From: an uncultured Actinomycetota bacterium
Lineage (GTDB): Bacteria > Actinomycetota > Actinomycetes > JAFAQI01 > DASSKL01
Assembly (NCBI GenBank): GCA_963728075.1
Contig: CAVSIP010000003.1
Span: 404,250-468,249, forward strand
Direction: 5' to 3'
DNA: 64,000 nt
A program made the position numbers and the translations under genes. Below, piece by piece: positions 4,295 through 62,274 of this stretch. A model generated the notes under the pieces. It was not told the origin of the DNA, ran no database searches, and saw only the letters and a list, made by a program, of their open reading frames with translations. Numbering within the stretch: position 1 is the stretch's first letter; the number at the start of each line of letters is the position of its first letter.

Positions 4295-5023
4295 ATGCCC
4301 ACGCCCACGAAGGGCCCGCGCCTCGGCGGCGGCCCCGCGCACGAGCGGCTCATGCTGGCGAACCTCGCCACGGCGCTGTTCGAGCACGGCCGCATCACGA
4401 CCACCGTGGCCAAGGCCAAGCGGCTGCGCCCCGTCGCGGAGCGGCTGATCACGTTCGCCAAGCGCGGTGACCTGCACGCCCGCCGCCAGGTCGCGCGCAC
4501 CATCCGCGACAACGGCGTCGTGCACACGCTGTTCGCGGAGATCGGCCCGCGCTACGCCGAGCGGCCGGGTGGCTACACCCGGATCACCAAGGTCGGCCCG
4601 CGCAAGGGCGACAACGCCGACATGGCGGTGATCGAGCTGGTCGAGGGCCAGACGGTCGCCCAGCAGGCCGTCGGTGAGGCCGAGGCCGCGCGGGGCAGCC
4701 GCTTCCGCGGTCGCCGTCGCCCGACCGGTGCCACCCGCGAGGCGGCGGCCGACTTGGCCGCCGAGTCGGCGACGGCGGCCGCCGTCGCCGCGGAGGCCGA
4801 GGTCGAGGCGCCGGAGACCGGCGAGCCGGTGCCGGCCGAGGGCGACATCACCGCGGCCGCGACGGCGGAGGAGACGGCCGAGGAGCAGGTCGCCGTGCCG
4901 GCCGAGGGCGGCGACACCGAGGTCGTCACCGAGAACGCCGAGGCCGGCCAAGGCGAGGAGGCCACGTCCGAGCAGACCGCGACCGCCGACGAGGAGTCGC
5001 CGGCCGAGGGTGAGAAGCCCTGA
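4295..5023 (+). CDS. rplQ: 50S ribosomal protein L17 (bL17) with long acidic Ala/Glu-rich C-terminal tail
   Basis: [37 protein letters not shown]... core, followed by roughly 110 aa of low-complexity A/E/T tail. Confidence 0.92.
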
Positions 5024-5909: not shown

Positions 5910-7619
5910 GTGGGCCACGTCGACGTCGCGCATGTGACGCACGCGCTGCCGGACGGCCGGGTGCTGCTGGACGACGTGTCCTTCCGGGTCGGCGACGGCG
6001 CCAAGGTGGCGCTCGTCGGAGCCAACGGCTCCGGCAAGACCACGCTGCTACGCATCGTCGCCGGTGACCTGCAGCCCGCGGACGGGACCGTGACCCGCAG
6101 CGGCGGGGTCGGCGTGATGCGTCAGTTCGTGGGCTCCGTCCGCGACGGCTCCACCGTCCGCGACCTGCTGGTGTCGGTGGCGCCGCCGCGGGTCGTGGCC
6201 GCGGCGGAGGCGCTCGACGCGGCGGAGCTGGCGATGATGGAGGCCGACGACGAACCGACGCAGCTGCGCTACGCCCAGGCACTGGCCGACTGGGCCGACG
6301 CCGGCGGCTACGACGCGGAGGTGGTCTGGGACGTCTGCACGACCGCCGCCCTGGGCCTGCCGTACGACCGTGCGCAGTGGCGCGAGGTCCGTACCCTCTC
6401 CGGCGGCGAGCAGAAGCGGCTCGCGCTGGAGGCGCTGCTGCGCGGGCCCGACGAGGTGCTGCTGCTCGACGAGCCCGACAACTACCTCGACGTGCCGGCC
6501 AAGCGGTGGCTCGAGGACGCCCTGCGGGACTCGCCCAAGACCGTGCTGTACGTCTCCCACGACCGGGAGCTGCTCGCCCGTACCGCGACCCGCGTCGTCA
6601 CCGTCGAGATCGGTGCCGCCGGCAACACCGTCTGGACGCACGGCGGCGGCTTCGCCGGCTACCACGATGCGCGCCGCGACCGGTTCGCGCGGCTGGAGGA
6701 GCTGCGCCGGCGGTGGGACGACAAGCACGAGCAGCTGCGCGAGCTGGTCCGCACGCTGCGGCAGAAGGCCGCGAACAACGACGGGATGGCCAGCCGGTAC
6801 CAGGCCGCGGTGACCCGGCTGGCGAAGTTCGAGCAGGCCGGCCCTCCGCAGGCGGTGCCCCGCGAGCAGGACGTCCGCATGCGGCTGGCGGGCGGGCGCA
6901 CGGGCAAGCGGGCGGTCGTGTGCGAGGACCTCGAGCTGACCGGTCTGATGCGGCCGTTCGACCTGGAGGTCTGGTACGGCGAGCGGGTGGCCGTGCTCGG
7001 CGGCAACGGCTCGGGCAAGTCGCACTTCCTGCGGCTGCTGGCCGCGGGCGGGAGCGACCCGGACCCCGAGCACCGCCCGGTGGACGACCTGGTCGTCCCC
7101 CCGGTGGCGCACACCGGGGCCGCGCGGCTGGGGGCGCGGGTGCGGCCGGGCTGGTTCGCCCAGACCCACGACCACCCCGAGCTGTACGGGCGCACGCTGC
7201 TCGACATCCTCTGGCGGGGCGACGGTCACCGGCGTGGGCTGGCCCGTGAGGAGGCCGCCCGGGCTCTGGACCGCTACGAGCTGGCCGTGGCCGCGGAGCA
7301 GGCATTCGAGTCCCTGTCGGGAGGGCAGCAGGCGCGGCTGCAGATCCTGCTGCTCGAGCTGTCCGGGGCCACGTTGCTGCTGCTCGACGAGCCGACCGAC
7401 AACCTCGACCTGGTCAGCGCCCAGTCGCTCGAGGACGCGCTGGCGTCCTTCGACGGCACGGTGCTGGCCGTGACCCACGACCGGTGGTTCGCCCGGTCCT
7501 TCGACCGGTTCGTCGTCTTCGGCGCCGACGGCGAGGTCTACGAGGCGCCCGAGCCGGTCTGGGACGAGCGCCGCCCCGTCCGCCAGCCCGGCGCCAGGTC
7601 ACCTTCGTGCGGCCCATGA
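5910..7619 (+). CDS. ABC-F family ATPase (two ABC cassettes, no membrane domain)
   Basis: 569 aa. Walker A GANGSGKT and GGNGSGKS, two signature motifs (LSGGEQ, LSGGQQ), two Walker B (LLLDEP), charged inter-domain linker. The last codons and the stop lie inside repeat copy A. Confidence 0.85.
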   Translation: MGHVDVAHVTHALPDGRVLLDDVSFRVGDGAKVALVGANGSGKTTLLRIVAGDLQPADGTVTRSGGVGVMRQFVGSVRDGSTVRDLLVSVAPPRVVAAAEALDAAELAMMEADDEPTQLRYAQALADWADAGGYDAEVVWDVCTTAALGLPYDRAQWREVRTLSGGEQKRLALEALLRGPDEVLLLDEPDNYLDVPAKRWLEDALRDSPKTVLYVSHDRELLARTATRVVTVEIGAAGNTVWTHGGGFAGYHDARRDRFARLEELRRRWDDKHEQLRELVRTLRQKAANNDGMASRYQAAVTRLAKFEQAGPPQAVPREQDVRMRLAGGRTGKRAVVCEDLELTGLMRPFDLEVWYGERVAVLGGNGSGKSHFLRLLAAGGSDPDPEHRPVDDLVVPPVAHTGAARLGARVRPGWFAQTHDHPELYGRTLLDILWRGDGHRRGLAREEAARALDRYELAVAAEQAFESLSGGQQARLQILLLELSGATLLLLDEPTDNLDLVSAQSLEDALASFDGTVLAVTHDRWFARSFDRFVVFGADGEVYEAPEPVWDERRPVRQPGARSPSCGP

Positions 7620-7692
7620 CCCTCTTCGTGCGGCCAGGTGTGGTCTGGCGATCTTGGTTGACCCCAGCAGGCCGCACGAAGGTGTGGGGTGG
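7597..7692 (+). repeat. copy A of a conserved palindromic intergenic element (core; similarity may extend to about 7582..7715)
   Basis: Perfect 15-bp inverted repeat, caccttcgtgcggcc (7600-7614) and ggccgcacgaaggtg (7670-7684). An internal second copy of cttcgtgcggcc sits at 7624-7635. Alignable to 61291..61386. Confidence 0.7.
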
Positions 7693-7718
7693 TGGCTGGT
7701 AGGTGGCGTGGGGCGGCT

Positions 7719-7748
7719 TTGACCGGCCGGACGGGTGACGGTTATCCT
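7719..7748 (+). promoter_or_regulatory. candidate promoter for rplM-rpsI
   Basis: TTGACC (7719-7724), 18-nt spacer, TATCCT (7743-7748), about 75 nt upstream of the rplM GTG. Pattern only. Confidence 0.35.
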
Positions 7749-15066: not shown

Positions 15067-16136
15067 ACCGGGCTGGCCGGGCCGGACTGTTCGGGGGGCT
15101 CGCCGCGGCCGTTGCCGCGGGCGCCGCCGCGGGGATGGCGCTGGAGCGCCAGGCCGTCGGCCGGCAGCGCAACCGGCCCGACCCGGAGGCACGCGAACCG
15201 CTGGGGTCGCTGCACACGGCCGGCCGGGCGGTGCTCGCCGACGACGGGGTCCCGCTGCACGTCGAGGTGGACGGCGATCCCGACGCCGAGCTCACGGTGG
15301 TCTTCGTCCACGGCTTCGCGCTGAACATGGACTGCTGGCACTACCAGCGCCGCGACCTCGGCGCGGCGGACAACCCGGCCGGCCGGCTGGTGTTCTACGA
15401 CCAGCGCAACCACGGAGCGTCCGGGCGCGGGCCGCGGGCGCACGCGACGATCGACCAGCTGGGCCGGGACCTGTACGCCGTCCTGGAGGCGACCGCTCCC
15501 CGCGGGCCGGTCGTGCTCGTGGGGCACTCCATGGGCGGCATGACGATCATGGCGCTCGCCGACCAGCATCCCGAGCTGTTCGGTGACCGGGTGATCGGCG
15601 CCGCGCTGGTGAGCACCTCGCCCGGCCTCAAGGGCGAGGCACTCGTCGGTGTGCCGGCGCTGGCCGGCCGTTTCGTGGAACCGCTCGCTCCGCGGCTCGT
15701 CGAGGGCATCCACCGCCGCGCGCACCTCATCGAGCGCGGCCGGCGGGTCGGGACCGACCTGTCCTACGTCCTCACTCGGCGCTACGGCTTCGGCTCCGCC
15801 CCGTCGCCGTCGGTGGTGGAGTTCCTGGAGCGCATGCTCGGCAACACCCCGATCGAGGTCATGAGCGAGTTCTTCCCCACCTTCGTCGACCACGACAAGC
15901 TGCACGCGCTGCCGGTACTGGGGGGTGTCGAGACCCTCGTCCTGGTCGGCGACCGGGACGCCCTGACCCCGCCCGAGCACAGCCGGGAGATCGCCCGGCT
16001 CGCCCCGGGGGCCGAGCTCGTCGTGCTCTCCGGAGCCGGGCACATGGTCATCCTCGAGCGGCCGGGCCTGGTCAACGTCCACCTCCGCGCCCTGATCCGT
16101 CGGGCTGCGGAGCGCGGCGACCGGGCCACGGCGTGA
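15057..16136 (+). CDS. alpha/beta fold hydrolase
   Basis: 359 aa. HGF oxyanion region (VVFVHGFALN) and nucleophile elbow VGHSMGG. The start overlaps the alr 3' end by 10 nt. Confidence 0.8.
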   Translation: MVVNRAGRAGLFGGLAAAVAAGAAAGMALERQAVGRQRNRPDPEAREPLGSLHTAGRAVLADDGVPLHVEVDGDPDAELTVVFVHGFALNMDCWHYQRRDLGAADNPAGRLVFYDQRNHGASGRGPRAHATIDQLGRDLYAVLEATAPRGPVVLVGHSMGGMTIMALADQHPELFGDRVIGAALVSTSPGLKGEALVGVPALAGRFVEPLAPRLVEGIHRRAHLIERGRRVGTDLSYVLTRRYGFGSAPSPSVVEFLERMLGNTPIEVMSEFFPTFVDHDKLHALPVLGGVETLVLVGDRDALTPPEHSREIARLAPGAELVVLSGAGHMVILERPGLVNVHLRALIRRAAERGDRATA

Positions 16137-17230: not shown

Positions 17231-17827
17231 GTGACCCGGTCCGCAGCGGACGCCGACGACGTCGGCTCCTGGTTCCCCGTGCCGAGCGAGGCAGACCTGC
17301 CGGAGGACCTGCAGAAGCTGTTCGCGAAGGCCAAGGAACGGATCGGCTTCGTCCCGAACGTCTTCCGCACGTACTCCTTCCGGCCGGAGCGGTTCCGGGC
17401 CTGGTTCGCCCACTTCCGCTCGCTGCACGAGCCGACCGACAACCTGTCGACGGCCGACCGCGAGATGATCGCGGTGGTGGTGTCGCAGACCAACGGCTGC
17501 CTGTACTGCCTCGTCGCGCACGGGGCCACGCTGCGCGAGGCGCTCGGCGACCAGGTGCTCGGGGACCGGATCACGCTCGACTGGCACCGGGCGGGGCTGG
17601 ACCCCCGCCGGGCGGCGATCTGCGCGTTCGCGGAGAAGCTGACCGCGCACCCGCGGGAGGTCACCGAGGCCGACGTCCAGAGCCTGCGTGACGTCGGTCT
17701 CACCGACGAGGAGGCGTGGGACGTCGCCGAGGTGGCGGCGATGTACAACTTCACGAATCGGATGGCGATGGCCACGAACATGCTCCCGAATCGCGAGTAC
17801 CACGCGCTGGCACGGGAGGTGACGTGA
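17231..17827 (+). CDS. AhpD-like / carboxymuconolactone decarboxylase-family peroxidase-related protein
   Basis: 198 aa. Motif [13 protein letters not shown] (CxxC..H). SD AGGAGG 6-7 nt upstream. The stop overlaps the next gene's GTG (GTGA). Confidence 0.7.
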
Positions 17828-18636
17828 CACCATCCCCCGGCATGACGGCACCTGGACCCGCGTCGGCCACCGGCGGTGCGCTGCTCGACATCGCGGACGT
17901 CACCGTCCGGTTCGGCGGTCTGGTCGCGCTCGACAGCGTCTCGACCGATGTCCGCCCGGGCGAGGTCCTCGGTGTCATCGGCCCCAACGGCGCCGGCAAG
18001 ACGACGCTGTTCAACGTCGTCTGCGGCTTCGTCCGGCCCGACGCCGGAGTGCTGACCTGGCAGGGCGAGCGGCTGACCAGCCACGAGCCGCACGACCTGT
18101 CGGCGCTGGGCATCGCCCGCACCCTGCAGGGCCTGGGCCTGTTCCCGCACATGAGCGCGGTCGAGAACGTCATGGTCGGCGCGACGAACCACGCTCGGGC
18201 CGGGTTCTGGTCCGCGCTGCTGGCGCTGCCCCGGTCCACGCGCGACGAGCGGCGGTTGCGGGAGACCGCGATGGCCGCCCTGGACGAGCTCGGTATCGCG
18301 GACGCGGCACCCAAGCTGCCCGGTGCCCTCCCGTACGGCGTCCAGAAGCGGGTCGCCCTGGCCCGCGCGCTCGTCGCCGAGCCGCGGCTGCTGCTGCTCG
18401 ACGAGCCGGCGTCCGGCCTGTCCAGCGACGAGATGCACGAGCTCGGCCAGCGCATCCGCAGCCTGCGCGAGCGCATGTCGGTGATGCTCGTCGAGCACCA
18501 CATGGACCTGGTCATGGAGGTCTGTGACCGGATCACGGTGCTCGACTTCGGCGCCGTGATCGCGAGCGGCCCGCCGGAGGAGATCCGCAACGACCCACGA
18601 GTGCTCGAGGCCTACCTCGGGGAGGTGGCGGAGTGA
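17824..18636 (+). CDS. livG: branched-chain amino acid (Liv/Bra-type) ABC transporter ATP-binding protein, LivG-like (operon I)
   Basis: Walker [10 protein letters not shown], LivG-specific insertion, signature LPYGVQKR. Alternative ATG at 17842. Confidence 0.82.
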
Positions 18637-19367
18637 GCGCCCCCGCGCAGCCCTCGACCATGCTCGCGGTCGCCGACGTGGTGACGGCGTACGGTGCCGT
18701 GCACGCGCTGGACGGGGTCAGCATCGACGTCCCGACCGGCGGGATCACCGCGGTGCTGGGCGCCAACGGGGCCGGCAAGACGACCCTGCTGCGCACGGTC
18801 AACGGCCTGGTCCGGCCCAGGTCGGGGAGCATCCGCTTCGACGGCCACGAGCTCGCGGGCATGGCGCCGGAGAAGGTCGTGACCCTGGGTCTGAGCCACG
18901 TCCCCGAGGGCCGCGGTGTCATCGCCGAGCTCACGGTCGAGGAGAACCTGCGCCTCGGCGGGCTGTGGCGCCGGCGCAAGGCCGAGCTCGCCGAGGACTA
19001 CGACCGTGTGTACGAGATGTTCCCGCCGCTCGCCGAGCGTCGGCGGCGGACGGCGTCGACGCTGTCCGGTGGCGAGCGTCAGATGCTGGTCATCGGCCGG
19101 GCGCTGATGGCCCGGCCACGGCTGCTCCTGCTGGACGAGCCCTCGCTCGGCCTGGCCCCGCGGATCACCGCGCAGATCATGCACCTGCTGCGCGGGCTCT
19201 GTGACGACACCGGGCTCACCGTGCTGCTCGTGGAGCAGAACGCCCGCTCGGCACTGTCCATCGCGGACCGTGCGGTGGTCCTCAACCTCGGCCGCGTGGT
19301 CGCCTCCGGCCCGGCGAGCGATCTCGCCGGGGACGAGCAGCTACGGCACGCCTACCTCGGCTTCTAG
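18633..19367 (+). CDS. livF: Liv/Bra-type ABC transporter ATP-binding protein, LivF-like (operon I)
   Basis: 244 aa. [26 protein letters not shown]. 4-nt overlap with livG. Confidence 0.85.
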   Translation: MSAPAQPSTMLAVADVVTAYGAVHALDGVSIDVPTGGITAVLGANGAGKTTLLRTVNGLVRPRSGSIRFDGHELAGMAPEKVVTLGLSHVPEGRGVIAELTVEENLRLGGLWRRRKAELAEDYDRVYEMFPPLAERRRRTASTLSGGERQMLVIGRALMARPRLLLLDEPSLGLAPRITAQIMHLLRGLCDDTGLTVLLVEQNARSALSIADRAVVLNLGRVVASGPASDLAGDEQLRHAYLGF

Positions 19368-19381
19368 GAGAGAGCGAACGC

Positions 19382-20260
19382 ATGGAGCAGTTCCTCAACC
19401 TCACGCTGAACGGCGTCGCCAACGGCATGATCTTCGCGGCCGTGGCACTGGCGCTGATCCTGATCTGGCGCGCCACGCGGGTCGTGAACTTCGCCCAGGG
19501 CGCGATGCTCATGTTCACCACGTTCATCGCCAAGTCGGCGCTGGACGCCGGCTGGTCGTACTGGGCCGCACTCGCGGTTGCGCTGGCCGCGGGCCTCGTG
19601 ATCGGCGGGGTGACCGAGCTGACGCTCATCCGACCGGTCGAGAACAAGCCCCCGCTGAACGCGGTGATCGTCACGCTGGGCATCTTCGTGCTGCTGCAGG
19701 CGGGTGCCGGGATGATCTGGGGCGGCCAGCCGGAGTCCTACCCGCCCGCCTTCAGCATCCGCGGGTACACGATCGGAAGCACCCATCTGGCGTTCAGCCC
19801 CATGGATCTGTTCACGGTGCTGTCGGTCAGCGGGCTGGCACTGCTGCTGCTCCTGCTGTTCCGCGGCACGAGCATCGGGCTGCAGATGCGGGCGGCGGCG
19901 TTCGAGCCGGAGGTGGCCAGGATGCTCGGCGTGCCCGTCGGCCGGATGCTCACGCTGGGCTGGGCGCTGGCGGCGATGGCCGGGGCGCTGGCCGGCGTCC
20001 TGGTGGCCCCGGCCGTGTTCCTCGGGCCCTACCAGTTCGACTCGATGCTGGTGTTCGGGTTCACCTCCGCGGTGATCGGCGGGCTGGACAGCCCACTCGG
20101 AGGAGTGGTGGGCGGGCTGGCCCTGGGCCTGACGCTGAGCTACCTGTCGGGGTACGTCGACTCGTCGCTGACCGGGCTCGGCGCTCTGGCACTGCTCATC
20201 GTGGTGCTCATGGCCCGGCCGGAGGGCCTGTTCACCCGTACCTCGGCACGGAGGGTGTGA
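19382..20260 (+). CDS. livH: Liv/Bra-type ABC transporter permease, LivH-like (operon I)
   Basis: 292-aa polytopic membrane protein. N-terminus MEQFLNLTLNGVANGMIFAAVALAL is typical of LivH. Confidence 0.85.
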   Translation: MEQFLNLTLNGVANGMIFAAVALALILIWRATRVVNFAQGAMLMFTTFIAKSALDAGWSYWAALAVALAAGLVIGGVTELTLIRPVENKPPLNAVIVTLGIFVLLQAGAGMIWGGQPESYPPAFSIRGYTIGSTHLAFSPMDLFTVLSVSGLALLLLLLFRGTSIGLQMRAAAFEPEVARMLGVPVGRMLTLGWALAAMAGALAGVLVAPAVFLGPYQFDSMLVFGFTSAVIGGLDSPLGGVVGGLALGLTLSYLSGYVDSSLTGLGALALLIVVLMARPEGLFTRTSARRV

Positions 20261-21405
20261 GCGTGAGCAAGCACGAGCAGGACGAGGCCCGCGAGACGCG
20301 GGGCGACGTCGTCCAGGCCGCGCACCGGCGCGGTCCGCGTGGCCCCATGGGGGCGCAGCTGGTCACCGGGTGGCGCTGGGTCCGGGAGCAGACGATGCTC
20401 TGGCACCTGCTCTGGCTGGTGGTCGGCCTCGTCGGCGTCTACCTGCTCACCGAGAGCCTCAGCCCGTTCCGCAACCTGCAGGTGGCGAACGTCGCGTACC
20501 TGGTGTGCGCCACGGCGGGGTTGACCGTGCTGGTGGGGCTCAACGGGCAGATCTCGATCGGTCACGGCGCGTTCATGGCCGTGGGGGCCTACACCGCCGC
20601 CGAGCTCGTGCTCAAGCGCGGCTGGGGTCCGGCAGAGGTGCTCGTCGCGGCCACGGTGGTCACCGCGCTCGTCGGTGTTCTCGTGGGCGCGGCCGCCGCG
20701 CGGCTGCGTGGCCCGTACCTCGCCGGCGCTACGCTGGCGTTCGCCGTGGGGCTGCCGGGGCTCGCCAACTGGGACAAGACGCAGAGCTTCCTCGGCGCGG
20801 ACACCGGTCTGCTGTTCGCCTCCCCGAGCCCGCCGTCCTCGCTGTCGTCGCTGAACCCGCAGGAGTGGCAGGCCTGGTTCACCTGCTTCGCGGCGCTCGT
20901 CACGCTGTTCTTCCTCGCGAACCTCTCCCGCAGCCGGGTCGGCCGCAACTTCCGGGCGGTGCGGGACGACGAGGTGGCGGCACAGCTGTCCGGACTGAAC
21001 ATCGCCCGCGTCCAGATCACCGCGTTCATCGTCAGCGCGGCGGCAGCGGGCCTCGGCGGCGGGCTGCTCGCCCTGGTGAACGGGCTGGCCGCGCCCGGTG
21101 CGTTCACCCTCGTGCTCTCGCTGACCCTGCTCAGCGCCATCATCATCGGCGGGCTCGGCAGCCTCGCGGGCGCGGTGTACGGCTCGATCGTGCTGGTGTT
21201 CCTGCCGACCTGGGCGAACAACTTCGGGGCCTCGCACAACCTGTCGACCGACATCCAGTCGAACATCCCCATCGCGATCTACGGCGGCGCGCTCGTGCTG
21301 GTCATGCTGCTGTTCCCCCTGGGCATCCAGGGTGGGCTCCGGCGGCTGTTCGCGCTGGGTGCCGGTGCGGTCCGGCGGGTGACCGAGCGGAGTTCGGTTC
21401 GGTAA
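20257..21405 (+). CDS. livM: Liv/Bra-type ABC transporter permease, LivM-like (operon I)
   Basis: GTG 20257 or 20263 overlaps or abuts the livH stop. Hydrophobic core GLNGQISIGHGAFMAVGAY. Charged N-terminal extension. Confidence 0.8.
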   Translation: MSVSKHEQDEARETRGDVVQAAHRRGPRGPMGAQLVTGWRWVREQTMLWHLLWLVVGLVGVYLLTESLSPFRNLQVANVAYLVCATAGLTVLVGLNGQISIGHGAFMAVGAYTAAELVLKRGWGPAEVLVAATVVTALVGVLVGAAAARLRGPYLAGATLAFAVGLPGLANWDKTQSFLGADTGLLFASPSPPSSLSSLNPQEWQAWFTCFAALVTLFFLANLSRSRVGRNFRAVRDDEVAAQLSGLNIARVQITAFIVSAAAAGLGGGLLALVNGLAAPGAFTLVLSLTLLSAIIIGGLGSLAGAVYGSIVLVFLPTWANNFGASHNLSTDIQSNIPIAIYGGALVLVMLLFPLGIQGGLRRLFALGAGAVRRVTERSSVR

Positions 21406-21507
21406 CACTGCGGCAACACCGGGACCTTCGCCCCGTGACTTTCGCCACATTCGCGATAACGTCCCGCCCCAGACCCGAGGTACCACTCGGAAAGACCAGG
21501 AGGCTTC

Positions 21508-22839
21508 ATGCAGCGCAAGTCCCTGCTCCGCGCCACGGCGGGGCTGGCGACCGTGTTCATCGCGGCCGCGGCCTGCGGCGGCAGCAGCAACGGCGGCAGC
21601 AACAACAACGCGGGCGGTACGACCAAGAACGTGCCCGGTGTGACCGCGACGTCGGTGCTCATCGGCAGCCACCAGCCGCTCACGGGCCCGGCGGCGCCGG
21701 GCTACAGCGAGATCGCCCCGTCCGCCAAGGCGATGTTCGACTACATCAACGCCAACGGTGGGATCAACGGACGCAAGATCACCTACAAGTACCTCGACGA
21801 CGCCTACAACCCGACCAACACGGTCAACGTCGTCAAGCAGCTGGTGCTGCAGGACCAGGTCTTCGCGATCTTCAACGGCCTCGGCACCCCGACCCACGAG
21901 AAGGTCATCGACTTCCTCAACCAGAACAAGGTGCCCGACCCGTTCGTCGCCTCCGGCTGCGCGTGCTGGGACCAGCCCCAGAAGTACCCGTACACCTTCG
22001 GCTGGCAGCCCAAGTACACGATCGAGGGCGCGGTGATGGGCAAGTACATCGCCGACAACTTCAAGGGCAAGAAGGTCGCGTACTTCTACCAGAACGACGA
22101 CTTCGGCAAGGACGGCGTCACCGGCCTGGACAAGTACATCCCGAAGGACATGGTCGTCGACCGGGAGACCTACACCGCGGGCAACACCGACATCGCCCCG
22201 CAGGTGCAGAAGCTGAAGAGCTCCGGCGCCGACATCGTGGTGTCGTTCAGCATCCCGGCCTACACCGCGCTGCTGAAGCTCAACAGCCTCAAGCTCAGCT
22301 ACAACCCGCAGCTGTTCGTCAGCAGCGTCGGCTCCGACCCGGTCACCCTGTCCGGCCTGCTGGAGGCGTTCGCCAAGCAGGGCGGCGCGAGCGTCCAGGG
22401 CAACGCGCTCATCCAGGGCCTGCAGACCGTCGGCTACCTGCCTCCGTACGGCGGCGCCAACGAGGGCCCGTGGGTCACGCTGTTCAAGAAGATCCACGAC
22501 CAGGCGAAGCTGCCGTTCCCGTTCGACGGCAACGTCGAGTACGGCATGTCGGTCGCGTTCTCGTTCGCCGAGGCGCTGAAGACCGCGGGCAAGGACCTCA
22601 CCCGCGACGACTTCGTCAAGGCGATCGAGAACACGAAGTACCAGGGCCCGGGCATCGTCCCGCTGACCTACAGCGCGACCGACCACGCGGGCTTCGACGG
22701 CGTGCAGATGGGTGTCATCAAGGGCAACACGATCGAGCTCGAGGGTGACCCCGAGGTCGTGGACAACAACCTGCAGGTGTCGAAGTCGAGCTACCAGCCG
22801 GCGAAGCCGGGCGACGCGGGGATCCTCCCGTCGTCGTGA
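21508..22839 (+). CDS. livK: Liv/Bra-type ABC transporter substrate-binding lipoprotein (operon I)
   Basis: 443 aa. Signal peptide with lipobox FIAAAAC, type I periplasmic-binding-protein fold sequence. SD AGGAGG upstream. Confidence 0.82.
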   Translation: MQRKSLLRATAGLATVFIAAAACGGSSNGGSNNNAGGTTKNVPGVTATSVLIGSHQPLTGPAAPGYSEIAPSAKAMFDYINANGGINGRKITYKYLDDAYNPTNTVNVVKQLVLQDQVFAIFNGLGTPTHEKVIDFLNQNKVPDPFVASGCACWDQPQKYPYTFGWQPKYTIEGAVMGKYIADNFKGKKVAYFYQNDDFGKDGVTGLDKYIPKDMVVDRETYTAGNTDIAPQVQKLKSSGADIVVSFSIPAYTALLKLNSLKLSYNPQLFVSSVGSDPVTLSGLLEAFAKQGGASVQGNALIQGLQTVGYLPPYGGANEGPWVTLFKKIHDQAKLPFPFDGNVEYGMSVAFSFAEALKTAGKDLTRDDFVKAIENTKYQGPGIVPLTYSATDHAGFDGVQMGVIKGNTIELEGDPEVVDNNLQVSKSSYQPAKPGDAGILPSS

Positions 22840-26598: not shown

Positions 26599-26634
26599 GG
26601 ACGGGGCGGCGGCCTGCCGGCCGCCGCCCCGTCC
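26599..26634. terminator. bidirectional stem-loop between convergent genes
   Basis: Perfect 16-bp stem ggacggggcggcggcc / ggccgccgccccgtcc with a 4-nt loop, between the oxygenase stop (26592) and the livK-II stop (26649). Confidence 0.7.
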
Positions 26635-26648
26635 CGAGTCGTGCTGCC

Positions 26649-27926
26649 CTACTGCTTGGCCGCCGAGGTGTAGTCGGCCATGTCCTTGCCCTCGTACAGG
26701 TCGCTCTGGACCGGGACCAGCTTGCCCAGGGCGTCCTTCTTCGGCTGGAAGATGAACACCTTCTTCGACGGGGCCTCGCCCTTCTTGGAGTAGTCGAGCG
26801 GGGCGACGATGCCGCCGGTGTCGACCGCCGTCGAGGCACGGAAGGCGTTGGCCATGCCGTCCCGGCTGAGGTCCTTGTTGTCACAGGCGGACTTCATGAC
26901 CTCGGTGAACGCCTTCGCCGCGGCGTAGCCCCAGGTGACACCGCCGTCGACCTCGGCGTCCGGGTAGGCCTTCTGGTAGTTGGCCACCAGGTCCTTGACC
27001 GACTGGATGTCCGCGGACGGCATGGCCCACGAGGCGATGAGGTAGAGGTTCTTCTCCAGCTGCGGCCCGGCGGCGGTGTCCATGATGCCGGGCGCGAACA
27101 CCGGGTTGTTGCCGAGGATCGGCACGTCGTACCCGATGGCCGCCTCGGTCGCCGCCGCGGACGCCGTCTGCTTCGGGCCGGTCGTGAGCAGGATCGCCTT
27201 CGCGCCCGCGTTCTTCAGGTTGGTGACCTGGGCGCTCACGTCGCTGTCCGTGGCCTTGATCTTCTGCTCGATGAGCTTCAGGCCGTTCTTCTGGGCGGCG
27301 AACTTGCTGCCGATGAGGCCGTTCTCGCCGTACTCACCCTCGAAGTAGATGTGGCCGATGGTGTCACCGCTCTTGAGCATGCCCTTCTCGATCATCCAGT
27401 CGATCCCGTCGACCATCTCGACCGGGTAGGACGTCCCCACCATCATGATGTCGGGGTTCGACAGCAGCGTCTCCGCCCACGAGGCGGGGATGGCCACCAT
27501 GTTGTCCGAGGCGTAGTTCGGCAGCAGCGCCGTGTTCATCGGCGAGCCGAGGCTCTGCGGCAGTCCCAGCACGTTGTTGTTGACCTGCTGGTACAGCGTC
27601 ACGGCCTGCTGCACGTCGTAGCCGTGGTCCTTGACCACGACATCGATCTTGCGGTTGCAGACGCCGCCGGCCGCGTTGACCTCGTCGAAGTACATCTTCT
27701 GGGCGTTGGTGATGCTCTTGCCGAGGGCGGCGAACGTGCCGTGCAGGTCGGTCAGCTCGCCGACGGTGATGGTGTCGGCGGTCACACCCGGACCGGTCTT
27801 GATCGCGTTGGCGTCGCTGCTCGACTGACTGCTGCTGGTGTTGTCGGACTTCGTGCTGCAGGCGCCGGCGAACAGCGCCAGCGCCGTGAAGGCCACGGCG
27901 ACGCCGCGTACACCTCTCCCGTTCAT
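26649..27926 (-). CDS. livK: Liv/Bra-type ABC transporter substrate-binding lipoprotein (operon II)
   Basis: ATG 27926 after SD GGGAGGGAAG. MNGRGVRGVAVAFTALALFAGAC lipobox. 425 aa. The track ORF's upstream 220 aa were rejected. Confidence 0.82.
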   Translation of the reverse strand: MNGRGVRGVAVAFTALALFAGACSTKSDNTSSSQSSSDANAIKTGPGVTADTITVGELTDLHGTFAALGKSITNAQKMYFDEVNAAGGVCNRKIDVVVKDHGYDVQQAVTLYQQVNNNVLGLPQSLGSPMNTALLPNYASDNMVAIPASWAETLLSNPDIMMVGTSYPVEMVDGIDWMIEKGMLKSGDTIGHIYFEGEYGENGLIGSKFAAQKNGLKLIEQKIKATDSDVSAQVTNLKNAGAKAILLTTGPKQTASAAATEAAIGYDVPILGNNPVFAPGIMDTAAGPQLEKNLYLIASWAMPSADIQSVKDLVANYQKAYPDAEVDGGVTWGYAAAKAFTEVMKSACDNKDLSRDGMANAFRASTAVDTGGIVAPLDYSKKGEAPSKKVFIFQPKKDALGKLVPVQSDLYEGKDMADYTSAAKQ

Positions 27927-27958
27927 GCGGTGCTTCCCTCCCGTTGAGACCCGATGGG

Positions 27959-29179
27959 TCAGGTCGGCGTACGTGCCGACGGCTCGTGGTGGGGTCCGGC
28001 ACCGAGCTCGGTGCGGGTACCGGATCCAGGGGTGTGGCCGGCGTCCGGGCCGTCGGCCGCGACGCCACGACGGCGCCGCCATCCACCGGAGAGGCGTCGG
28101 CCGACCGCGGCCAGCCCCCCCGGCTCGAACATGATCACGAGCACGATCGCCGCTCCATAGACGAAGCGGGCGAACGTACCCGGGTCGACACCGCCGCTGC
28201 CGGGCTGCGCGAGGAACCCGATCTTGTCGCTGTACTGCACCAGCAGCTGCGGGAGTGCGGAGACGAACACCGCGCCGAGCGCGGCACCGCCGACCGAGGC
28301 GAGGCCGCCGATGACGATCATCGCCAGGAAGTCGATGGACATCGTGAAGCCGAACGAGTCCGGCACGACCCGCTGGAACGCCAGGCCGAACAGCACGCCC
28401 GCGAGGCCCGCGTACATCGACGACACGATGAACGCCCCGGCCTTGTAGCGGCGGACGTCCACGCCGATGACCGAGGCGGCGACCTCGCTGTCGCGGACCG
28501 CGTTCAGCGCGCGGCCAGGGCGCCCCCGCACGATGTTCTTGGCCGTCACGTACGACAGCACCACCAGGACCAGCCCGAGGTACCACAGCCGTTCCAGCCG
28601 GTGGAACGGCACGTTGAGGACGAAGAGGTCCGGGTCGTGGTCGGCGAAGTGGAACCCGCCGACGCTGAACGGGGTGATGGTGCGGCCGTAGAAGCCGCCG
28701 GTCACCGCGGAGGCGTTGAACAGCAGGTGCTGGCCGATGAACACCAGCGCCAGCGAGGCGATACCGAGGTAGATGCCGCGCAGGCGGCTGGAGATCGGGC
28801 TGAACAGCCCGCCGGCGATCCCTGCCGCGATGACGGCCAGCAGCATCGCGACGATCGGCGGCAGCCCCAGGCCGTGGACCGTGTTCGTGCCCTGCGCCTG
28901 CTCGTGGCCGGAGAAGTACGCGTAGCCGTACGCGCCGATCGCGAGGAAGAACGCGTGTGCCAGCGACAGCTGCCCGGTGACGCCGGTGAGCAGGTTCAGC
29001 CCGATGGCACCGATGACCGCCGACATCGCGAACAGGCCGGTCTGCAGCAGCGAGGTCTGCAGGTAGAAGGGCAGGACCAGGGCGACAGCCACGATCGCGA
29101 GTCGCAGCAGGAACCCCGCCGACGGCCGGCGTACGGAGGGCAGCCGTCGGGAGCGGCCGGCGGGGGAGGCCTCAGACAC
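27959..29179 (-). CDS. livM: Liv/Bra-type ABC transporter permease, LivM-like (operon II)
   Basis: 406-aa polytopic protein. GVTGQLSLAHAFFLAIGAYGY core. Confidence 0.82.
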   Translation of the reverse strand: MSEASPAGRSRRLPSVRRPSAGFLLRLAIVAVALVLPFYLQTSLLQTGLFAMSAVIGAIGLNLLTGVTGQLSLAHAFFLAIGAYGYAYFSGHEQAQGTNTVHGLGLPPIVAMLLAVIAAGIAGGLFSPISSRLRGIYLGIASLALVFIGQHLLFNASAVTGGFYGRTITPFSVGGFHFADHDPDLFVLNVPFHRLERLWYLGLVLVVLSYVTAKNIVRGRPGRALNAVRDSEVAASVIGVDVRRYKAGAFIVSSMYAGLAGVLFGLAFQRVVPDSFGFTMSIDFLAMIVIGGLASVGGAALGAVFVSALPQLLVQYSDKIGFLAQPGSGGVDPGTFARFVYGAAIVLVIMFEPGGLAAVGRRLSGGWRRRRGVAADGPDAGHTPGSGTRTELGAGPHHEPSARTPT

Positions 29180-30062
29180 GGGCCACCTCGCGGGTGCCGA
29201 ACAGCCCGCTCGGCCGCCACAGCAGCACCAGGATCATGATCACGTACGGCATGATCGATCCGAAGCCGTGGCCGAGGAAGCCGAGGTCGTTCTCGTACCC
29301 CGAGGTCATGGTCTCGGCGAGCCCGACGGTGATGCCGCCGGCCAGGGCGCCGCTGGTGGAGTCGAGCCCGCCGAGGATGGCCGCCGGGAAGGCGCGCAGG
29401 GCGATCAGCCCGGTGTTGTTGTCCAGGCCCGGGGTCGGGAACGCGGTGAGGAACACCGACGCCACGGCCGCGAGCACCCCGGCGATCACCCACGCGATCA
29501 TGGAGACCCGCCCCTGGCGGATGCCCATCAGCGCGGCCGCCTCGCCGTCCTCGGCGGAGGCGCGCATCGCGATGCCCCAGCCGGTGTACTTCTGCGCCAG
29601 CATGAACAGGGTGATCAGCCCGACCGCGATGATGATCGCCCACAGCCGGGTCTGCGGGACGTGGTAGCCGCCGATGCTGACGACCTGGCTGCCCCAGGGG
29701 TCGCCGGGCGTGAACACCTTCGAGCCGATCCGCCGGGTGAGCTCGGTCAGCAGGATGATGTCCACGCCGATCGTGAGGATGGCGAGCGCGTTGACGTCCG
29801 AGCCGCGCAGCGGACGGATGAGGAACCGCTCGACGAGCAGCGCGGCGAACGCGGCCACGGCCGCTCCGACCACGAAGGCCAGCGGGAAACCGAGGCTGGC
29901 GTGCGTCTCCGCGATGACGAAGCCACCCAGCAGCAGCAGTGAGCCGTGCGCGAAGTTCACCACCTCGGTCGCCTTGAAGATGACGACGAAACCGAGCGCG
30001 ATGAGCGAGTAGATGAAGCCGAGCGACACCCCACTGATGAGGAGCTCGATGAACTTCGTCAC
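29172..30062 (-). CDS. livH: Liv/Bra-type ABC transporter permease, LivH-like (operon II)
   Basis: 296 aa. MTKFIELLISGVSLGFIYSLIALGFVVIF... Overlaps its neighbours by 8 and 4 nt. Confidence 0.85.
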   Translation of the reverse strand: MTKFIELLISGVSLGFIYSLIALGFVVIFKATEVVNFAHGSLLLLGGFVIAETHASLGFPLAFVVGAAVAAFAALLVERFLIRPLRGSDVNALAILTIGVDIILLTELTRRIGSKVFTPGDPWGSQVVSIGGYHVPQTRLWAIIIAVGLITLFMLAQKYTGWGIAMRASAEDGEAAALMGIRQGRVSMIAWVIAGVLAAVASVFLTAFPTPGLDNNTGLIALRAFPAAILGGLDSTSGALAGGITVGLAETMTSGYENDLGFLGHGFGSIMPYVIMILVLLWRPSGLFGTREVARV

Positions 30063-30907
30063 GGAGTGGGGTCCCCCTTCTGCATCGGGTCGCGTTCGTC
30101 GGTGCCGAGGTAGGCGCGGATGACGTCGGGGTGCTGCTGGATCTGCTCGGGGCTGCCCTCGGCGACCAGGCGGCCGAAGTCGAGGACGGTGATCCGGTCG
30201 CAGATGCCCATGACCAGACCCATGTCGTGCTCGACGAGCAGGATCGAGATGCCCAGGGCGTTGCGGACCTGCAGGATCGTGGCGGCCATCCGCCGGGTCT
30301 CGTCGGCGTTCATGCCCGCCACCGGCTCGTCGAGGAGCAGGACCTGCGGCTCCATCGCCAGCGCGCGGGCGATCTCGACGCGCTTCTGGTCCCCGTAGGA
30401 GAGGTTGCCGGCGTACGCGTCGAGCTTGTCGCCGATCCCGAGGAAGCCGGCGATCTCCCGCACCCGCCCGGTGTGCCGCCGCCGCTCACGTACGGCGGCA
30501 GGCAGGGCCAGCCCGGTGCCGAGGAAGCCGGCTCGGGTGAGGTGGTGCCGGCCGAGCATGACGTTCTCCAGCACCGTCTGATGCTTGGACAGTGCGATGT
30601 TCTGGAACGCCCGCCCGACGCCGAGCGCGGCCACCCGGTGCGGCCGCAGGCCGGTGAGCTGGTTCTCGCCGAGGAACACCTGGCCCTCGGTGGCGCGGTA
30701 GACGCCGGAGATCACGTTGAAGCAGGTCGACTTGCCGGCACCGTTGGGGCCGATGAGGCCGTGGATGGTCCCGGGCTCGACGGTGAAGGACACGCCGGAG
30801 AGCGCCTCGACGCCGGCGAAGCGCATGGTGACGTCGCGGACGACCAGTGGGGGGAGCTCGACGTCGTGGCGAGGCAGGGCCTGGGCGGGCACGTTCATCC
30901 CGACCAC
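30059..30907 (-). CDS. livG: Liv/Bra-type ABC transporter ATP-binding protein, LivG-like (operon II)
   Basis: 282 aa. GPNGAGKST, LSYGDQKRVEIARAL, LLLDEPVAG. Confidence 0.85.
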   Translation of the reverse strand: MVGMNVPAQALPRHDVELPPLVVRDVTMRFAGVEALSGVSFTVEPGTIHGLIGPNGAGKSTCFNVISGVYRATEGQVFLGENQLTGLRPHRVAALGVGRAFQNIALSKHQTVLENVMLGRHHLTRAGFLGTGLALPAAVRERRRHTGRVREIAGFLGIGDKLDAYAGNLSYGDQKRVEIARALAMEPQVLLLDEPVAGMNADETRRMAATILQVRNALGISILLVEHDMGLVMGICDRITVLDFGRLVAEGSPEQIQQHPDVIRAYLGTDERDPMQKGDPTP

Positions 30908-31692: not shown

Positions 31693-31845
31693 GCCACCGC
31701 CCTTCCGCCGTTGGCTCGTCCTGCGATCCGCGCATTCAACCCTGTGATGTACGCCACAAGCACGCTCCGAGACCTAACCGTGACCTGAACGACGTCCGGG
31801 TTAGCCCGTACGGGCTCCGGCCGGCCGGCTCCGTAGCCTGGAGAG

Positions 31846-36210: not shown

Positions 36211-36252
36211 CGCGTGACGCCCTGCCGGCTCCGGTCGGCAGGGCGTCACGCG
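36211..36252 (+). terminator. groEL terminator hairpin
   Basis: Perfect 17-bp stem cgcgtgacgccctgccg / cggcagggcgtcacgcg with an 8-nt loop, 20 nt after the stop. Confidence 0.75.
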
Positions 36253-42848: not shown

Positions 42849-42885
42849 GGTCTGTCCTGCTCTCGGTACGGGGCCCCCGGAACGC

Positions 42886-59093: not shown

Positions 59094-59113
59094 CCCTCGC
59101 TAGGGTTCCGCAC

Positions 59114-59719
59114 GTGTCCGCGCGGCTGGTCGTCCTCGTCTCCGGCTCCGGCACCAACCTGCAGGCCCTCCTCGACGCGTGCGCCGACCCGGGGTACGGG
59201 GCGCAGGTCGTCGCGGTCGGTGCCGACCGGCACGGGATCGAGGGGCTCGCGCGCGCCGAACGGGTGGGCGTGCCGACGTTCGTCCTGCGGGTGCCGGACT
59301 TCCCGGACCGCCCCGCATGGGACGCCGCGATCACCGACGCGGTCGCCGGGTACGAACCCGACCTGGTCGTCTCGGCGGGGTTCATGAAGCTCGTCGGCCC
59401 CGCCTTCCTCGCCCGGTTCCGCGGCCGGTTCGTCAACACCCACCCGGCGCTGCTGCCGTCGTTCCCCGGCATGCACGGCGCGAGCGACGCCCTGGAGTAC
59501 GGCGTCAAGGTGGCGGGGGCGACGCTGTTCCTCGTGGACGAGGGCGTCGACACCGGCCCGATCGTGGCGCAGCGCTGTGTCGACGTGCGTGACGACGACG
59601 ACGAGGCGTCGCTGCACGAACGGATCAAGGGCGTGGAGCGGGAGATGCTCGTCAGCGCCGTCGGCAGGATGGTCCGGGAGGGCTGGACCGTACGTGGAAG
59701 GAAGGTCTCGATCCCATGA
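59114..59719 (+). CDS. purN: phosphoribosylglycinamide formyltransferase
   Basis: GTG 59114. [16 protein letters not shown].., [12 protein letters not shown].., [12 protein letters not shown]. Confidence 0.92.
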
Positions 59720-61281
59720 GCAAGCGACCCATCCGCCGGGCGCTCGTCAGCGTGTACGACAAGACCGGGCTGGAGGGGCTGGGCCGGGTGCTCGCCGAGC
59801 ACGGCGTCCAGGTCGTCTCCACCGGCTCCACCGCTGCCCGGCTGCGGGACGCCGGGGTCGGCGTCACCCCGGTCGAGGAGCTCACCGGCTTCCCGGAGTG
59901 CCTCGAGGGCCGGGTGAAGACCCTGCACCCGAAGGTGCACGCGGGCATCCTCGCCGACCTGCGCAAGCCCGACCACGAGCGGCAGCTGGCCGACCTCGGG
60001 GTCGAGCCGTTCGACCTCGTCGTCGTGAACCTCTACCCGTTCCGCGAGACCGTGGCCTCCGGGGCGGCGCCGGACGAGGTCGTCGAGCAGATCGACATCG
60101 GCGGGCCCTCGATGGTCCGGGCCGCGGCGAAGAACCACCCGTCCGTCGCGGTCGTCGTCTCCCCGGACCGGTACGGCGAGGTGGCCGACGCCGTCCGCTC
60201 CGGCGGGTTCAGCCTGGAGCAGCGCACCCGGCTGGCGGCCGAGGCGTTCGCGCACACCGCTGCGTACGACGTCGCGGTCGCCTCCTGGTTCGCGAGCGTG
60301 CAGTCCCCCGACGCGGTGGCCGCCGAGTCCGGCTTCCCGGACTTCCTCGGCGGGACGTGGTCGCGCTCGGCCGTGCTGCGCTACGGCGAGAACCCGCACC
60401 AGCGGGCCGCCCTGTTCGTCTCCCAGGACGGGCCGGCCGGGCTCGCGCAGGCACAGCAGCTGCACGGCAAGGAGATGTCGTACAACAACTACGTCGACAC
60501 CGACGCGGCCCGGCGGGCGGCGTACGACTTCGGCGACCCCTGCGTGGCGGTCGTCAAGCACGCCAACCCCTGCGGGATCGCGGTCGGCGCCGACGTCGCG
60601 GAGGCGCACCGCAAGGCGCACGCCTGCGACCCGGTGTCCGCGTTCGGAGGCGTCATCGCGACCAACCGGCCGGTGTCGGTCGCCATGGCCGAGCAGGTCG
60701 CGGAGATCTTCACCGAGGTGGTCTGCGCGCCGGCGTTCGACGACGGTGCGGTGGAGATCCTCGCGCGCAAGCCGTCGATCCGGCTGCTGCTGTGCCCCCC
60801 GCCCGCGTCCCGCGCGGGCCTGGAGATGCGGCAGGTCAGCGGTGGCCTGCTCCTGCAGAGCATCGACACCGTCGACGACCCCGGCGACGACCCGGCGGGC
60901 TGGTCGCTGCAGGCCGGCGACCCCGCCGACGCGGCGACGCTGGCCGACCTCGGGTTCGCCTGGCGGGCCTGCCGGTCGGTGAAGTCCAACGCGATCCTGC
61001 TCGCGGCCGACGGTGCGACCGTCGGGGTCGGCATGGGCCAGGTGAACCGCGTGGACGCGGCTCGACTCGCGGTGGCCCGCGCCGGGGACCGCGCGACCGG
61101 GGCGGTCGCGGCGAGTGACGCCTTCTTCCCGTTCCCGGACGGGTTCGAGGTGCTCGCCGAGGCCGGCGTCCGCGCGGTCGTCGAGCCCGGCGGCTCCGTA
61201 CGCGACGAGCTCGTCGTCGAGGCCGCCATGAAGGCCGGTGTCGCGCTGTACTTCACCGGCACGCGGCACTTCTTCCACTGA
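59716..61281 (+). CDS. purH: bifunctional AICAR transformylase / IMP cyclohydrolase
   Basis: 521 aa. ATGA overlap with pur[13 protein letters not shown].., ..KHANPCG.., C-terminal TGTRHFFH. Confidence 0.95.
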
Positions 61282-61290
61282 CACCAGCGC

Positions 61291-61386
61291 CCGCGCCTTC
61301 GTGCGCCCCACGACCGTCTTCATGCGGCCAGACGGGGCTGATGGAGATCGTTTGACCCCAGTACGTCGCACGAAGGCGCAGGGCGG
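61291..61386 (+). repeat. copy B of the palindromic intergenic element (core; similarity may extend to about 61283..61405)
   Basis: 12-bp inverted repeat cgccttcgtgcg (61294-61305) / cgcacgaaggcg (61367-61378). Alignable to 7597..7692. By hand count, the left block is 33/38 identical and the right block 30/38. Confidence 0.7.
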
Positions 61387-61410
61387 GGGCGGCGTGGGAG
61401 ACTCGGCCGC

Positions 61411-62274
61411 GTGAGCGCGCAGATCCTCGACGGCAACCAGGTCCTCGACCGCGTGAAGGACGACCTGCGCGAGCGGGTCGACGCGCTGAAGGCGGCCGGC
61501 GTGCAGCCGGGACTCGGCACGGTCCTCGTCGGCGACGACCCGGCGAGTGCGAAGTACGTCGAGATGAAGCACCGCAACTGTGCCGAGCTGGGCATCGACT
61601 CGGTCCACGAGCACCTGTCGGCGACGGCGTCGCAGGCCGACGTCGACGCGGTCGTCGACCGGTTCAACCGGGACGAGCGGGTCGACGCCTACCTCATGCA
61701 GCACCCGTTCCCCAAGGGGCTCGACTTCGAGGCGGCGCTGCTTCGCGTCGACCCGGCGAAGGACGTGGACGGGCTGCACCCGGTCAACCTCGGCCGGCTG
61801 CTGCAGGGCGTCCGCGGTCCCCGCCCGTGCACCCCGGCCGGGATCCAGGCCCTGCTGGCGCACTACGAGGTGCCCGTGGAGGGGCGCCACGTGGTGATCA
61901 TCGGCCGCGGTCTCACCGTCGGGAAGCCGCTGGCGGCCCTGCTCGCGCTGAAGGAGCCGCACGCGAACGCCGCCGTCACCGTGCTGCACACCGGCGTGCG
62001 CGACATCGCGCCGTACGTCCGCACCGCGGACGTCGTGGTCGCCGCCGCCGGTGCTCCGGGGATCGTCACCGCCGAGATGGTCAAGCCGGGCGCGGCGGTG
62101 GTGCAGACCGGCACGACGATCGTCGACGGGAAGTACCGCCCGGACGTGGACCCCGCCGTCCGGGAGGTCGCAGGCTGGTTCTCCCCGGTGACGGGCTCGG
62201 TCGGGCCGATGACCCGGGCCATGCTGCTGACGAACGTGGTCGAGGCCGCGGAGCGGCGCGCCGGCCTGCGCTAG
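61411..62274 (+). CDS. folD: bifunctional methylenetetrahydrofolate dehydrogenase / methenyl-THF cyclohydrolase
   Basis: 287 aa. GTG start. ..LVGDDPASAKYVEMK.., ..VIIGRGLTVGKPLA.., ..GSVGPMTRAMLL. Confidence 0.93.
   Translation: MSAQILDGNQVLDRVKDDLRERVDALKAAGVQPGLGTVLVGDDPASAKYVEMKHRNCAELGIDSVHEHLSATASQADVDAVVDRFNRDERVDAYLMQHPFPKGLDFEAALLRVDPAKDVDGLHPVNLGRLLQGVRGPRPCTPAGIQALLAHYEVPVEGRHVVIIGRGLTVGKPLAALLALKEPHANAAVTVLHTGVRDIAPYVRTADVVVAAAGAPGIVTAEMVKPGAAVVQTGTTIVDGKYRPDVDPAVREVAGWFSPVTGSVGPMTRAMLLTNVVEAAERRAGLR

Follow-up and report, generated by a model that had tools for sequence, protein, structure and literature searches.

Two stretches within a 64-kb window of actinomycete DNA (64,000 nucleotides of contig CAVSIP010000003.1 from an uncultured Actinomycetota bacterium, all of which is meant by "the window" below) are homologous copies of one non-random palindromic repeat of about 120 nt, which may well be a small, non-coding insertion element resembling REPINs and bacterial interspersed mosaic elements (BIMEs) on the one hand and miniature inverted-repeat transposable elements (MITEs) on the other. 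Copy A lies at the 3' end of a gene for an ABC-F ATPase, and copy B is 54 kb away between purH and folD; both are on the plus strand, in the same orientation as the flanking genes. A discrete insertion at the end of a gene, inverted blocks about 70 bp apart, a fixed-length spacer of free sequence and a long hairpin together point to the class of small non-autonomous palindromic repeats. We hold this assignment with about even confidence, and membership of any specific repeat family is unproven.

The core of copy A is a perfect 15-nt inverted repeat, CACCTTCGTGCGGCC and GGCCGCACGAAGGTG (units R1 and R3), with 55 nt between the arms, and a repeat search recovered it together with an exact direct repeat of the 12-mer CTTCGTGCGGCC, which occurs at 7603-7614 within R1 and again as R2, 21 nt start to start. 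An earlier note on this DNA had described both features, and had also placed the stop codon and last codons of the ABC-F open reading frame (ORF) inside the left arm; the codons do lie there, but the TGA comes 2 nt after the arm's 3' end, in the stretch that separates R1 from R2. Three exact instances of the 12-mer are present in the 64 kb, all within the element, and matches to it with two or fewer mismatches are at the chance level in the window (20 found, 23 expected). Only four places in the window have a perfect inverted repeat of 15 bp or more whose arms are 3-100 nt apart, and the other three are short-loop hairpins.

A fourth, decayed unit (R4, GGTGGCTGGTAGGTG) follows R3 in copy A. 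When reverse-complemented, the 21-nt segment 7689-7709 that holds it agrees with the R1 unit in 12 of its 21 positions (P = 0.006 at fixed position), and the outermost ends of the element, CCCGGCGCC and GGCGTGGGG, are also roughly inverted. The element as a whole looks like two direct and two inverted units, phased at 21 nt around a loop of free sequence, that make up one long imperfect palindrome. In the lowest-energy fold of the full copy A (-72.1 kcal/mol), which is a single long hairpin, R2 pairs with R3 on the inside, and R1 and the left end pair with the G-rich tail.

The second copy reported in the earlier note was recovered by a single-sequence nhmmer search with copy A (61295-61390, E = 2.9e-10). 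Homology between the two is confined to ∼120 nt with sharp ends, stopping at 7713 and 61399 (…GGCGTGGG[G/A]), and from R1 to the start of the tail the copies are colinear, with identical spacing and no insertions or deletions. R1 and R2 are exactly 21 bp apart in both copies, as are R3 and R4 in copy A. The repeat blocks are 86% identical overall, with 87% from R1 to R2 and 85% from TTGACCCCAG to R3. In the central 20 nt, identity is 35% compared to a random expectation of 30% at this base composition, and so few matches in the centre have a probability of 2e-7 given 86% identity in the flanking blocks. The G-rich tail is ∼56% identical, and alignments of the whole tail put an 8-nt gap in copy B. 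Profile and covariance-model searches had been proposed as a check on the repeat; in the window they returned copy B but no third copy, either with nhmmer --max or with a covariance model run with its filters off. A candidate third copy at 16026-16118 was rejected, as it lies inside an alpha/beta-hydrolase coding sequence and is ∼45% identical, a chance match.

Table 1. Coordinates of the two copies, their parts and the neighbouring genes in the window.
Feature	Coordinates	Strand	Basis or remark
Copy A, long imperfect palindrome, 127 nt	7587..7713	+	Limits of A-B homology; ABC-F end restored by excision
R1, left arm CACCTTCGTGCGGCC, coding for the last ABC-F codons	7600..7614	+	Perfect inverted repeat with 7670-7684
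ABC-F stop TGA supplied by the element	7617..7619	+	ORF 5910-7619; homologues stop ~10 residues sooner
R2, second direct copy of CTTCGTGCGGCC, 21 nt after R1	7624..7635	+	
Variable centre (loop region)	7638..7657	+	7/20 positions identical to copy B, the random level
Invariant box TTGACCCCAG adjoining R3	7658..7667	+	Identical in A and B; left-side pairing partner varies
R3, right arm GGCCGCACGAAGGTG	7670..7684	+	
G-rich tail including degenerate R4	7685..7713	+	Pairs with R1 and left end in lowest-energy fold
R4, decayed inverted unit GGTGGCTGGTAGGTG	7691-7705		Copy A, exactly 21 nt after R3
Copy B, 118 nt	61282..61399	+	Directly after purH stop; ends 11 nt before folD GTG
Copy B R1 GCGCCTTCGTGCG	61293..61305	+	Perfect 13-bp inverted repeat with 61367-61379
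Copy B R2 CTTCATGCGGCC	61318..61329	+	One change relative to the copy A 12-mer
Copy B R3 CGCACGAAGGCGC	61367..61379	+	
ABC-F ATPase gene, 3' end running into copy A	5910..7619	+	
CGG CTT TGA, inferred ancestral ABC-F last codons and stop	7714..7722	+	Displaced downstream of the insertion
Promoter-like TTGACC-18-TATCCT ahead of rplM (GTG 7824)	7719..7748	+	Outside the element
purH, upstream of copy B	59716..61281	+	
folD, downstream of copy B	61411..62274	+	

Comparison with related genomes bears directly on the origin of the two copies. The nearest non-self homologues of the window proteins are 83-84% identical and come from soil metagenomes, Jiangella, and 'Mycobacteriales' or Frankiales metagenome-assembled genomes. 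Relatives with an 84% identical PurH have the same purN-purH-folD-FHA synteny, with a purH-folD spacer of 9 nt (locus L064) or 34 nt (loci L065-L067); the window has 129 nt there. To judge from GAGCTGCTG in L064, the last 11 nt ahead of the folD start (GACTCGGCCGC) appear to be the ancestral spacer, which places copy B at 61282-61399, directly after the purH TGA. By this comparison, copy B has stretched the spacer from about 10-35 nt to its present length, roughly a tenfold increase. A Shine-Dalgarno-like GGGAG 11 nt before the folD GTG (61395-61410) is made up of the end of copy B (…GTGGGA) and the flank (GACTCGG…), and the folD ribosome-binding site appears to have been supplied by the insertion.

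At the other locus, the ABC-F homologues are 558-562 amino acids long compared to 569 here. They end in …VVRQR, …VRVR and similar, with DNA reading CAG CGT TGA or GTC CGC TGA, whereas the window protein continues as …VRQ-PGARSPSCGP. Removal of 7587-7713 in silico restores …PVRQRL, with the terminal Arg of the relatives. We infer from this that 7587 and 7713 are the boundaries of copy A, which fits both the end of the homology and the restored ABC-F terminus. The earlier note had suggested that the ABC-F C-terminus derives from the element, and the homologue alignment, in which relatives end in …VRQ(R), bears this out: as judged from it, the last residues and stop codon have been replaced by copy A, so that the last ∼10 codons are element-derived.

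No copy of the element was found in the loci of relatives (∼120 kb in all), including their purH-folD and ABC-F loci. Its absence from the orthologous purH-folD junction argues for an insertion rather than a conserved leader, and on the evidence of these alignments both copies are lineage-specific insertions. Both are in tiny spaces at the 3' ends of housekeeping genes, with junctions (marked by slashes) that read CAG/CCCGG…GGGG/CGG in copy A and TGA/CACCA…GGGA/GAC in copy B.

The closest parallels are with the REPINs and the related arrangements of repetitive extragenic palindromic sequences (REPs). REPINs consist of two invariant inverted 16-mers 71 bp apart, with a less conserved spacer of fixed length and compensatory changes, and both the spacer length and the capacity to form a hairpin matter (PMC3116915). 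Like the RAYT-mobilised REPIN and REP-BIME systems of Pseudomonas and Enterobacteria (PMC3116915, PMC2817692), the element is ∼100 nt long, extragenic, and located at gene ends and within operons. Its inverted blocks R1 and R3 are 70 bp apart, compared to 71 bp in the GI REPINs, and they too enclose a less conserved spacer of fixed length; conserved blocks, fixed spacer and a hairpin formed by the whole unit are all present, and the composite of direct and inverted units recalls the BIMEs. The element differs in that its repeat unit is not itself a small palindrome, in having the extra internal direct unit R2 with its 21-nt phasing, and in its actinomycete host, the REPIN examples compared here being from Pseudomonas, E. 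coli and Nostoc.

The element also has much in common with MITEs that carry terminal inverted repeats, such as Correia/NEMIS of Neisseria, RUP and ERIC. These are non-coding, about 100-150 nt long, have terminal or subterminal inverted repeats and insert at gene ends, where they can alter the 3' ends of ORFs and be co-transcribed. Terminal inverted repeats of this kind are perfect over 15 bp in copy A and 13 bp in copy B. A difference from MITEs is that the copies remain homologous for ∼13 nt and ∼29 nt outside the perfect inverted repeat.

If the element does belong with these repeats, it would have spread through an enzyme provided in trans, with specificity for the repeat units or the hairpin. 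Candidates would be a single-strand transposase of the RAYT/IS200 type and a conventional one that acts on the terminal inverted repeats. Once inserted, it would be co-transcribed with the flanking genes and fold as a long GC-rich hairpin, which at most would modulate mRNA stability or processing. The two alternative stems open to the transcript would then be a by-product of having two direct copies of one unit. The element would add a case, from an actinomycete lineage that has been little sampled, of small palindromic repeats between essential genes, with insertions that rewrite the ABC-F C-terminus and break up the tightly coupled purH-folD pair in a host that remains viable. For annotation, the last 10 ABC-F codons and the long purH-folD spacer should not be taken as ancestral features, nor as a riboswitch. 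Wider interest would arise only if there is a large family with a dedicated transposase, or if a core and phasing shared with Amycolatopsis (see below) represent a more widely recognised motif.

Several findings weigh against classification as a mobile repeat. Only two copies are known, both in the 64 kb of the window, whereas high copy number is a hallmark of REPINs and MITEs, the REPINs having tens to hundreds of copies per genome. REPIN genomes also have a cognate RAYT gene (a Y1/HUH transposase), usually with REPs on its flanks; a further departure is that no RAYT, nor any other transposase, was seen in a Pfam scan of the ∼40 ORFs of the window. The element differs from MITEs in that no target-site duplication is evident at either copy, a 2-bp GA being possible in copy B only, and in that no parent insertion sequence with matching ends was found in the window, plasmids or phages. 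A GTAG or CGTC tetranucleotide tag is present at one end of the REP palindromic unit (PMC3733652), but here neither is shared between the copies: GTAG occurs only in the copy A tail (7699-7702), within the 8 nt without a counterpart in copy B, and CGTC only in copy B (61364-61367). Moreover, selection for a host function could account just as well for 86% identical blocks beside a randomised centre.

The searches for further members point the same way. Exact matches to the pattern CCTTCGTGCG-N50-72-CGCACGAAGG were found at 47 loci among 185,579 representative genomes, and none of these fits the element profile at E < 0.1; those in Microbacterium proved to be orthologous coding regions. If the source genome is in that collection with only the window masked, it contains no other copy with both 10-mers exact, which would imply a low copy number. 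A scan of JGI metagenomes with the pattern TTGACCCCAG-N5-CGCACGAAG gave two matches, neither of them a member. One (L050, 779-803) has 25 nt identical to copy A (GTTGACCCCAGCAGGCCGCACGAAG) within a MarR-like coding sequence (…LTPAGRTK…) and is a coincidence of codon usage; the other is unrelated. Three patterns searched against viral contigs gave nothing or coincidences in coding sequences, and blastn against plasmids and phages gave no match. No copies in mis-called ORFs were found with a six-frame peptide profile against 5.8 billion proteins, a search in which the filter of 8000 word-matched candidates may have been swamped by low-complexity words.

Other searches were similarly unproductive. 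A profile search of 1.84 billion protein representatives, likewise aimed at mis-called ORFs, returned only unrelated repetitive proteins, and a full-text search of the literature for the core 10-mer returned only coincidences with primers. An Rfam search, which the earlier note had also suggested, matched no relevant family, either at gathering thresholds over the whole window or at E ≤ 10 around both copies.

The alternative that fares best is that the element, perhaps once mobile, is now kept by the host as a mark of cistron ends in the form of an RNA hairpin, acting as a barrier to 3' exonucleases, as a processing site for RNase III or RNase E, or as a factor-assisted terminator without a U-tract. 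We regard this as unlikely, albeit with a good deal in its favour. Both copies are placed at the upstream gene's stop codon and share the orientation of the genes, the conserved blocks stand beside a randomised centre, and the consensus fold of the plus strand (RNAalifold), which has the same nested arrangement as copy A, uses G-U pairs between R1 and the G-rich tail. The same orientation of two copies is nonetheless an event of 50% chance, and relative to shuffled sequences the folds have only modest z-scores (-2.2 to -3.4), with little difference between the strands. Copy B is a further difficulty, in that it lies inside a purH-folD unit that is tight in relatives and is followed by no promoter-like site, so that efficient termination there would cut off folD.

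Counterparts of such a hairpin would be the TRITs of Mycobacterium or the REPs found inside E. coli operons. TRITs ('Tuberculosis Rho-independent terminators') are sequence-conserved palindromes placed tightly around stop codons; their centres are near position -8 of the stop codon, and M. tuberculosis has 147 copies (PMC3152330). They are, like the element, an actinobacterial hairpin family that is near or overlaps stop codons and has no canonical U-tract. The comparison was one of position only. TRITs have been reported only in Mycobacterium, and the element is built differently, with duplicated units and with 55 nt enclosed by R1 and R3. Termination by TRITs is itself doubtful because no more than 2-4% of mapped 3' ends fall at predicted TRITs (bioRxiv 10.1101/2022.06.01.494293), and mycobacterial RNA polymerase needs a U-tract at intrinsic terminators (PMC3993855); both points count against a terminator role for the element.

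The three short-loop hairpins of the window, at 26599-26634, 36211-36252 and 42885-42921, are each unique, with perfect GC-rich stems of 16-18 bp, loops of 4-5 nt and no U-tract; that at 26599-26634 follows a TGA and lies between convergent ORFs. They appear to be ordinary gene-end signals of this genome, and their lack of a U-tract is a point in favour of a gene-end hairpin at copies A and B, where it is shared.

A different possibility, to which we assign a low probability, is that the element is a set of phased sites in double-stranded DNA, with 12-nt cores 21 bp (two helical turns) apart and one or more inverted partners, and that the hairpin is incidental. A nucleoid-associated protein, a regulator or a recombinase could bind such sites. 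The 21-bp spacings of R1-R2 in both copies and of R3-R4 in copy A are as expected of such an arrangement, and the cores are conserved in sequence beyond mere complementarity. The positions within operons, between unrelated genes, nevertheless offer no regulatory logic, and we know of no matching binding motif for the cores.

The proposal of phased sites draws some strength from an array in Amycolatopsis rhizosphaerae (NZ_VJWX01000004.1, locus L002, 1378-1503), the only structurally interesting locus of the 47 pattern matches. Three direct units (TGTGTCCCAC[C/G][T/C]TC[G/C]TGCG) are followed there by three inverted units (GCGCACGAAGGTGGGACACAA), all exactly 21 nt apart, and the motif of the array can be written GTGTCCCACCTTCGTGCGC; the array stands immediately behind a stop codon and is flanked by convergent genes. 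Its core CACCTTCGTGCG is identical to that in R1 of copy A, an agreement that reaches two bases past the part fixed by the search pattern, and its period is that of R1-R2 in the window. The two are further alike in having direct followed by inverted units, in their location after a stop codon and in being from high-GC actinomycetes, and they differ in that the 3+3 units of the Amycolatopsis array are contiguous, without a loop region, and have convergent genes on either side. Beyond the cores the two sequences show no relationship, with identity at the random level, and the link of the array to the element is weakened in that it consists of the period and a 12-nt core that was partly forced by the search pattern. 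Going by core and period, the array may be a distant relative of the element or a convergent site for the same kind of factor. We found no description of an array of this type in the literature.

These parallels can be pushed further, into a speculative scheme that has little chance of being correct. The element would be a member of an undescribed, actinomycete-wide class of 'punctuation' arrays at gene ends, whose units, phased at 21 nt, sharing the core CACCTTCGTGCG and set out as direct and then inverted groups, would be read by a dedicated protein that sees either duplex DNA or a long hairpin of RNA or single-stranded DNA. The Amycolatopsis 3+3 array would be another member, and the 2+1(+1) version in the window would be bistable and would link the downstream cistron's fate to upstream translation.

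The interpretation put forward in the earlier note, that two perfect and mutually exclusive stems form an RNA switch, is not sustained. In such a riboswitch or ribosome-sensing attenuator R3 would pair with either R1 or R2, the choice controlling read-through into the downstream gene. Both stems are indeed perfect in copy A, and the conformers are close in energy when the tail is removed from copy A (-51.3 kcal/mol each) and in the full copy B (-58.1 versus -59.2 kcal/mol); a ribosome terminating at the ABC-F stop, just after R1, would also cover R1 of copy A. In copy B, however, the R2:R3 stem is degraded to nine Watson-Crick pairs, one G-U pair and two mismatches of 12, beside the perfect 13 bp of R1:R3. 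With the full copy A, R2:R3 pairing is favoured by 10.6 kcal/mol over the fold with R1:R3 forced (-61.5 kcal/mol). The geometry is not constant either, since the stop codon is at element positions 31-33 in copy A but before position 1 in copy B, and the downstream start is 110 nt away at rplM but 11 nt away at folD.

Several other features are equally out of keeping with a switch. The flanking genes, with rplM and folD downstream, are functionally unrelated, neither stem has a U-tract, no Rfam family matches even at E = 10, and the element is absent from the orthologous sites in relatives. Efficient termination at copy B would moreover separate folD from the only evident promoter. A conserved unpaired core such as would form a ligand pocket is not identifiable from the two sequences. 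Between the copies R1:R3 is 93% paired with one compensatory change (A-U to G-C), and R2:R3 with its extension is 87.5% paired with none; a single compensatory pair from two sequences was reached by 242 of 500 shuffles and has no statistical power. We consider a switch very improbable.

Four further identities were rejected. The G-rich tract and putative rplM promoter that follow copy A were correctly pointed out in the earlier note, and this promoter-like site is the sole sigma-70-like sequence in the region; an invariant TTGACC inside the element has no -10 partner in either copy, which disposes of an internal promoter. A canonical terminator does not fit, as no U-tract follows either stem, and the copies are not the att sites of an integrated island, since the 54 kb between them is core housekeeping DNA, syntenic with relatives and including rplM, rpsI, glmM, alr, guaB, guaA, purN and purH. 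A small protein is equally untenable, as the central peptide is not conserved and the ATG of copy A is ACG in copy B. At the 73% G+C of the window it is unremarkable that both copies have three of the six frames open.

The ATG in question shares bases with the ABC-F stop codon (ATGA), and an ORF of 28 codons runs from it through the element (7616-7702). Mycobacterial interspersed repetitive units (MIRUs) are tandem direct repeats with small coupled ORFs. Like the element, they are short, occupy spacers within polycistronic operons, follow the direction of transcription and can overlap neighbouring stop and start codons. The element differs from them in being palindromic and in having the ATG/TGA overlap in copy A only.

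The window as a whole is an actinomycete housekeeping stretch that carries rplQ, truA, the ABC-F ATPase gene, rplM, rpsI, glmM, glmS and alr, together with two branched-chain amino-acid ABC transporter clusters, guaB, guaA, a gene for a UvrD-type helicase, purN, purH, folD and a citrate synthase gene. The purN open frame (57923-59719) is 598 amino acids long, with the formyltransferase domain at residues 401-580 only; PurN of relatives is 200-201 amino acids, and the Arg/Gly-rich N-terminal part of the frame is probably untranslated. The rplQ ORF (L17; 4295-5023) is 242 amino acids long with a long Ala/Glu-rich C-terminal extension, and its DNA holds a 71-nt imperfect palindrome at 4743-4813. 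The two transporter clusters are paralogous and in opposite orientation (17692-22839 on the plus strand and 26652-31773 on the minus strand), with two ATPases, permeases and a periplasmic binding protein, and their ATPase genes are 67-69% identical at the DNA level.

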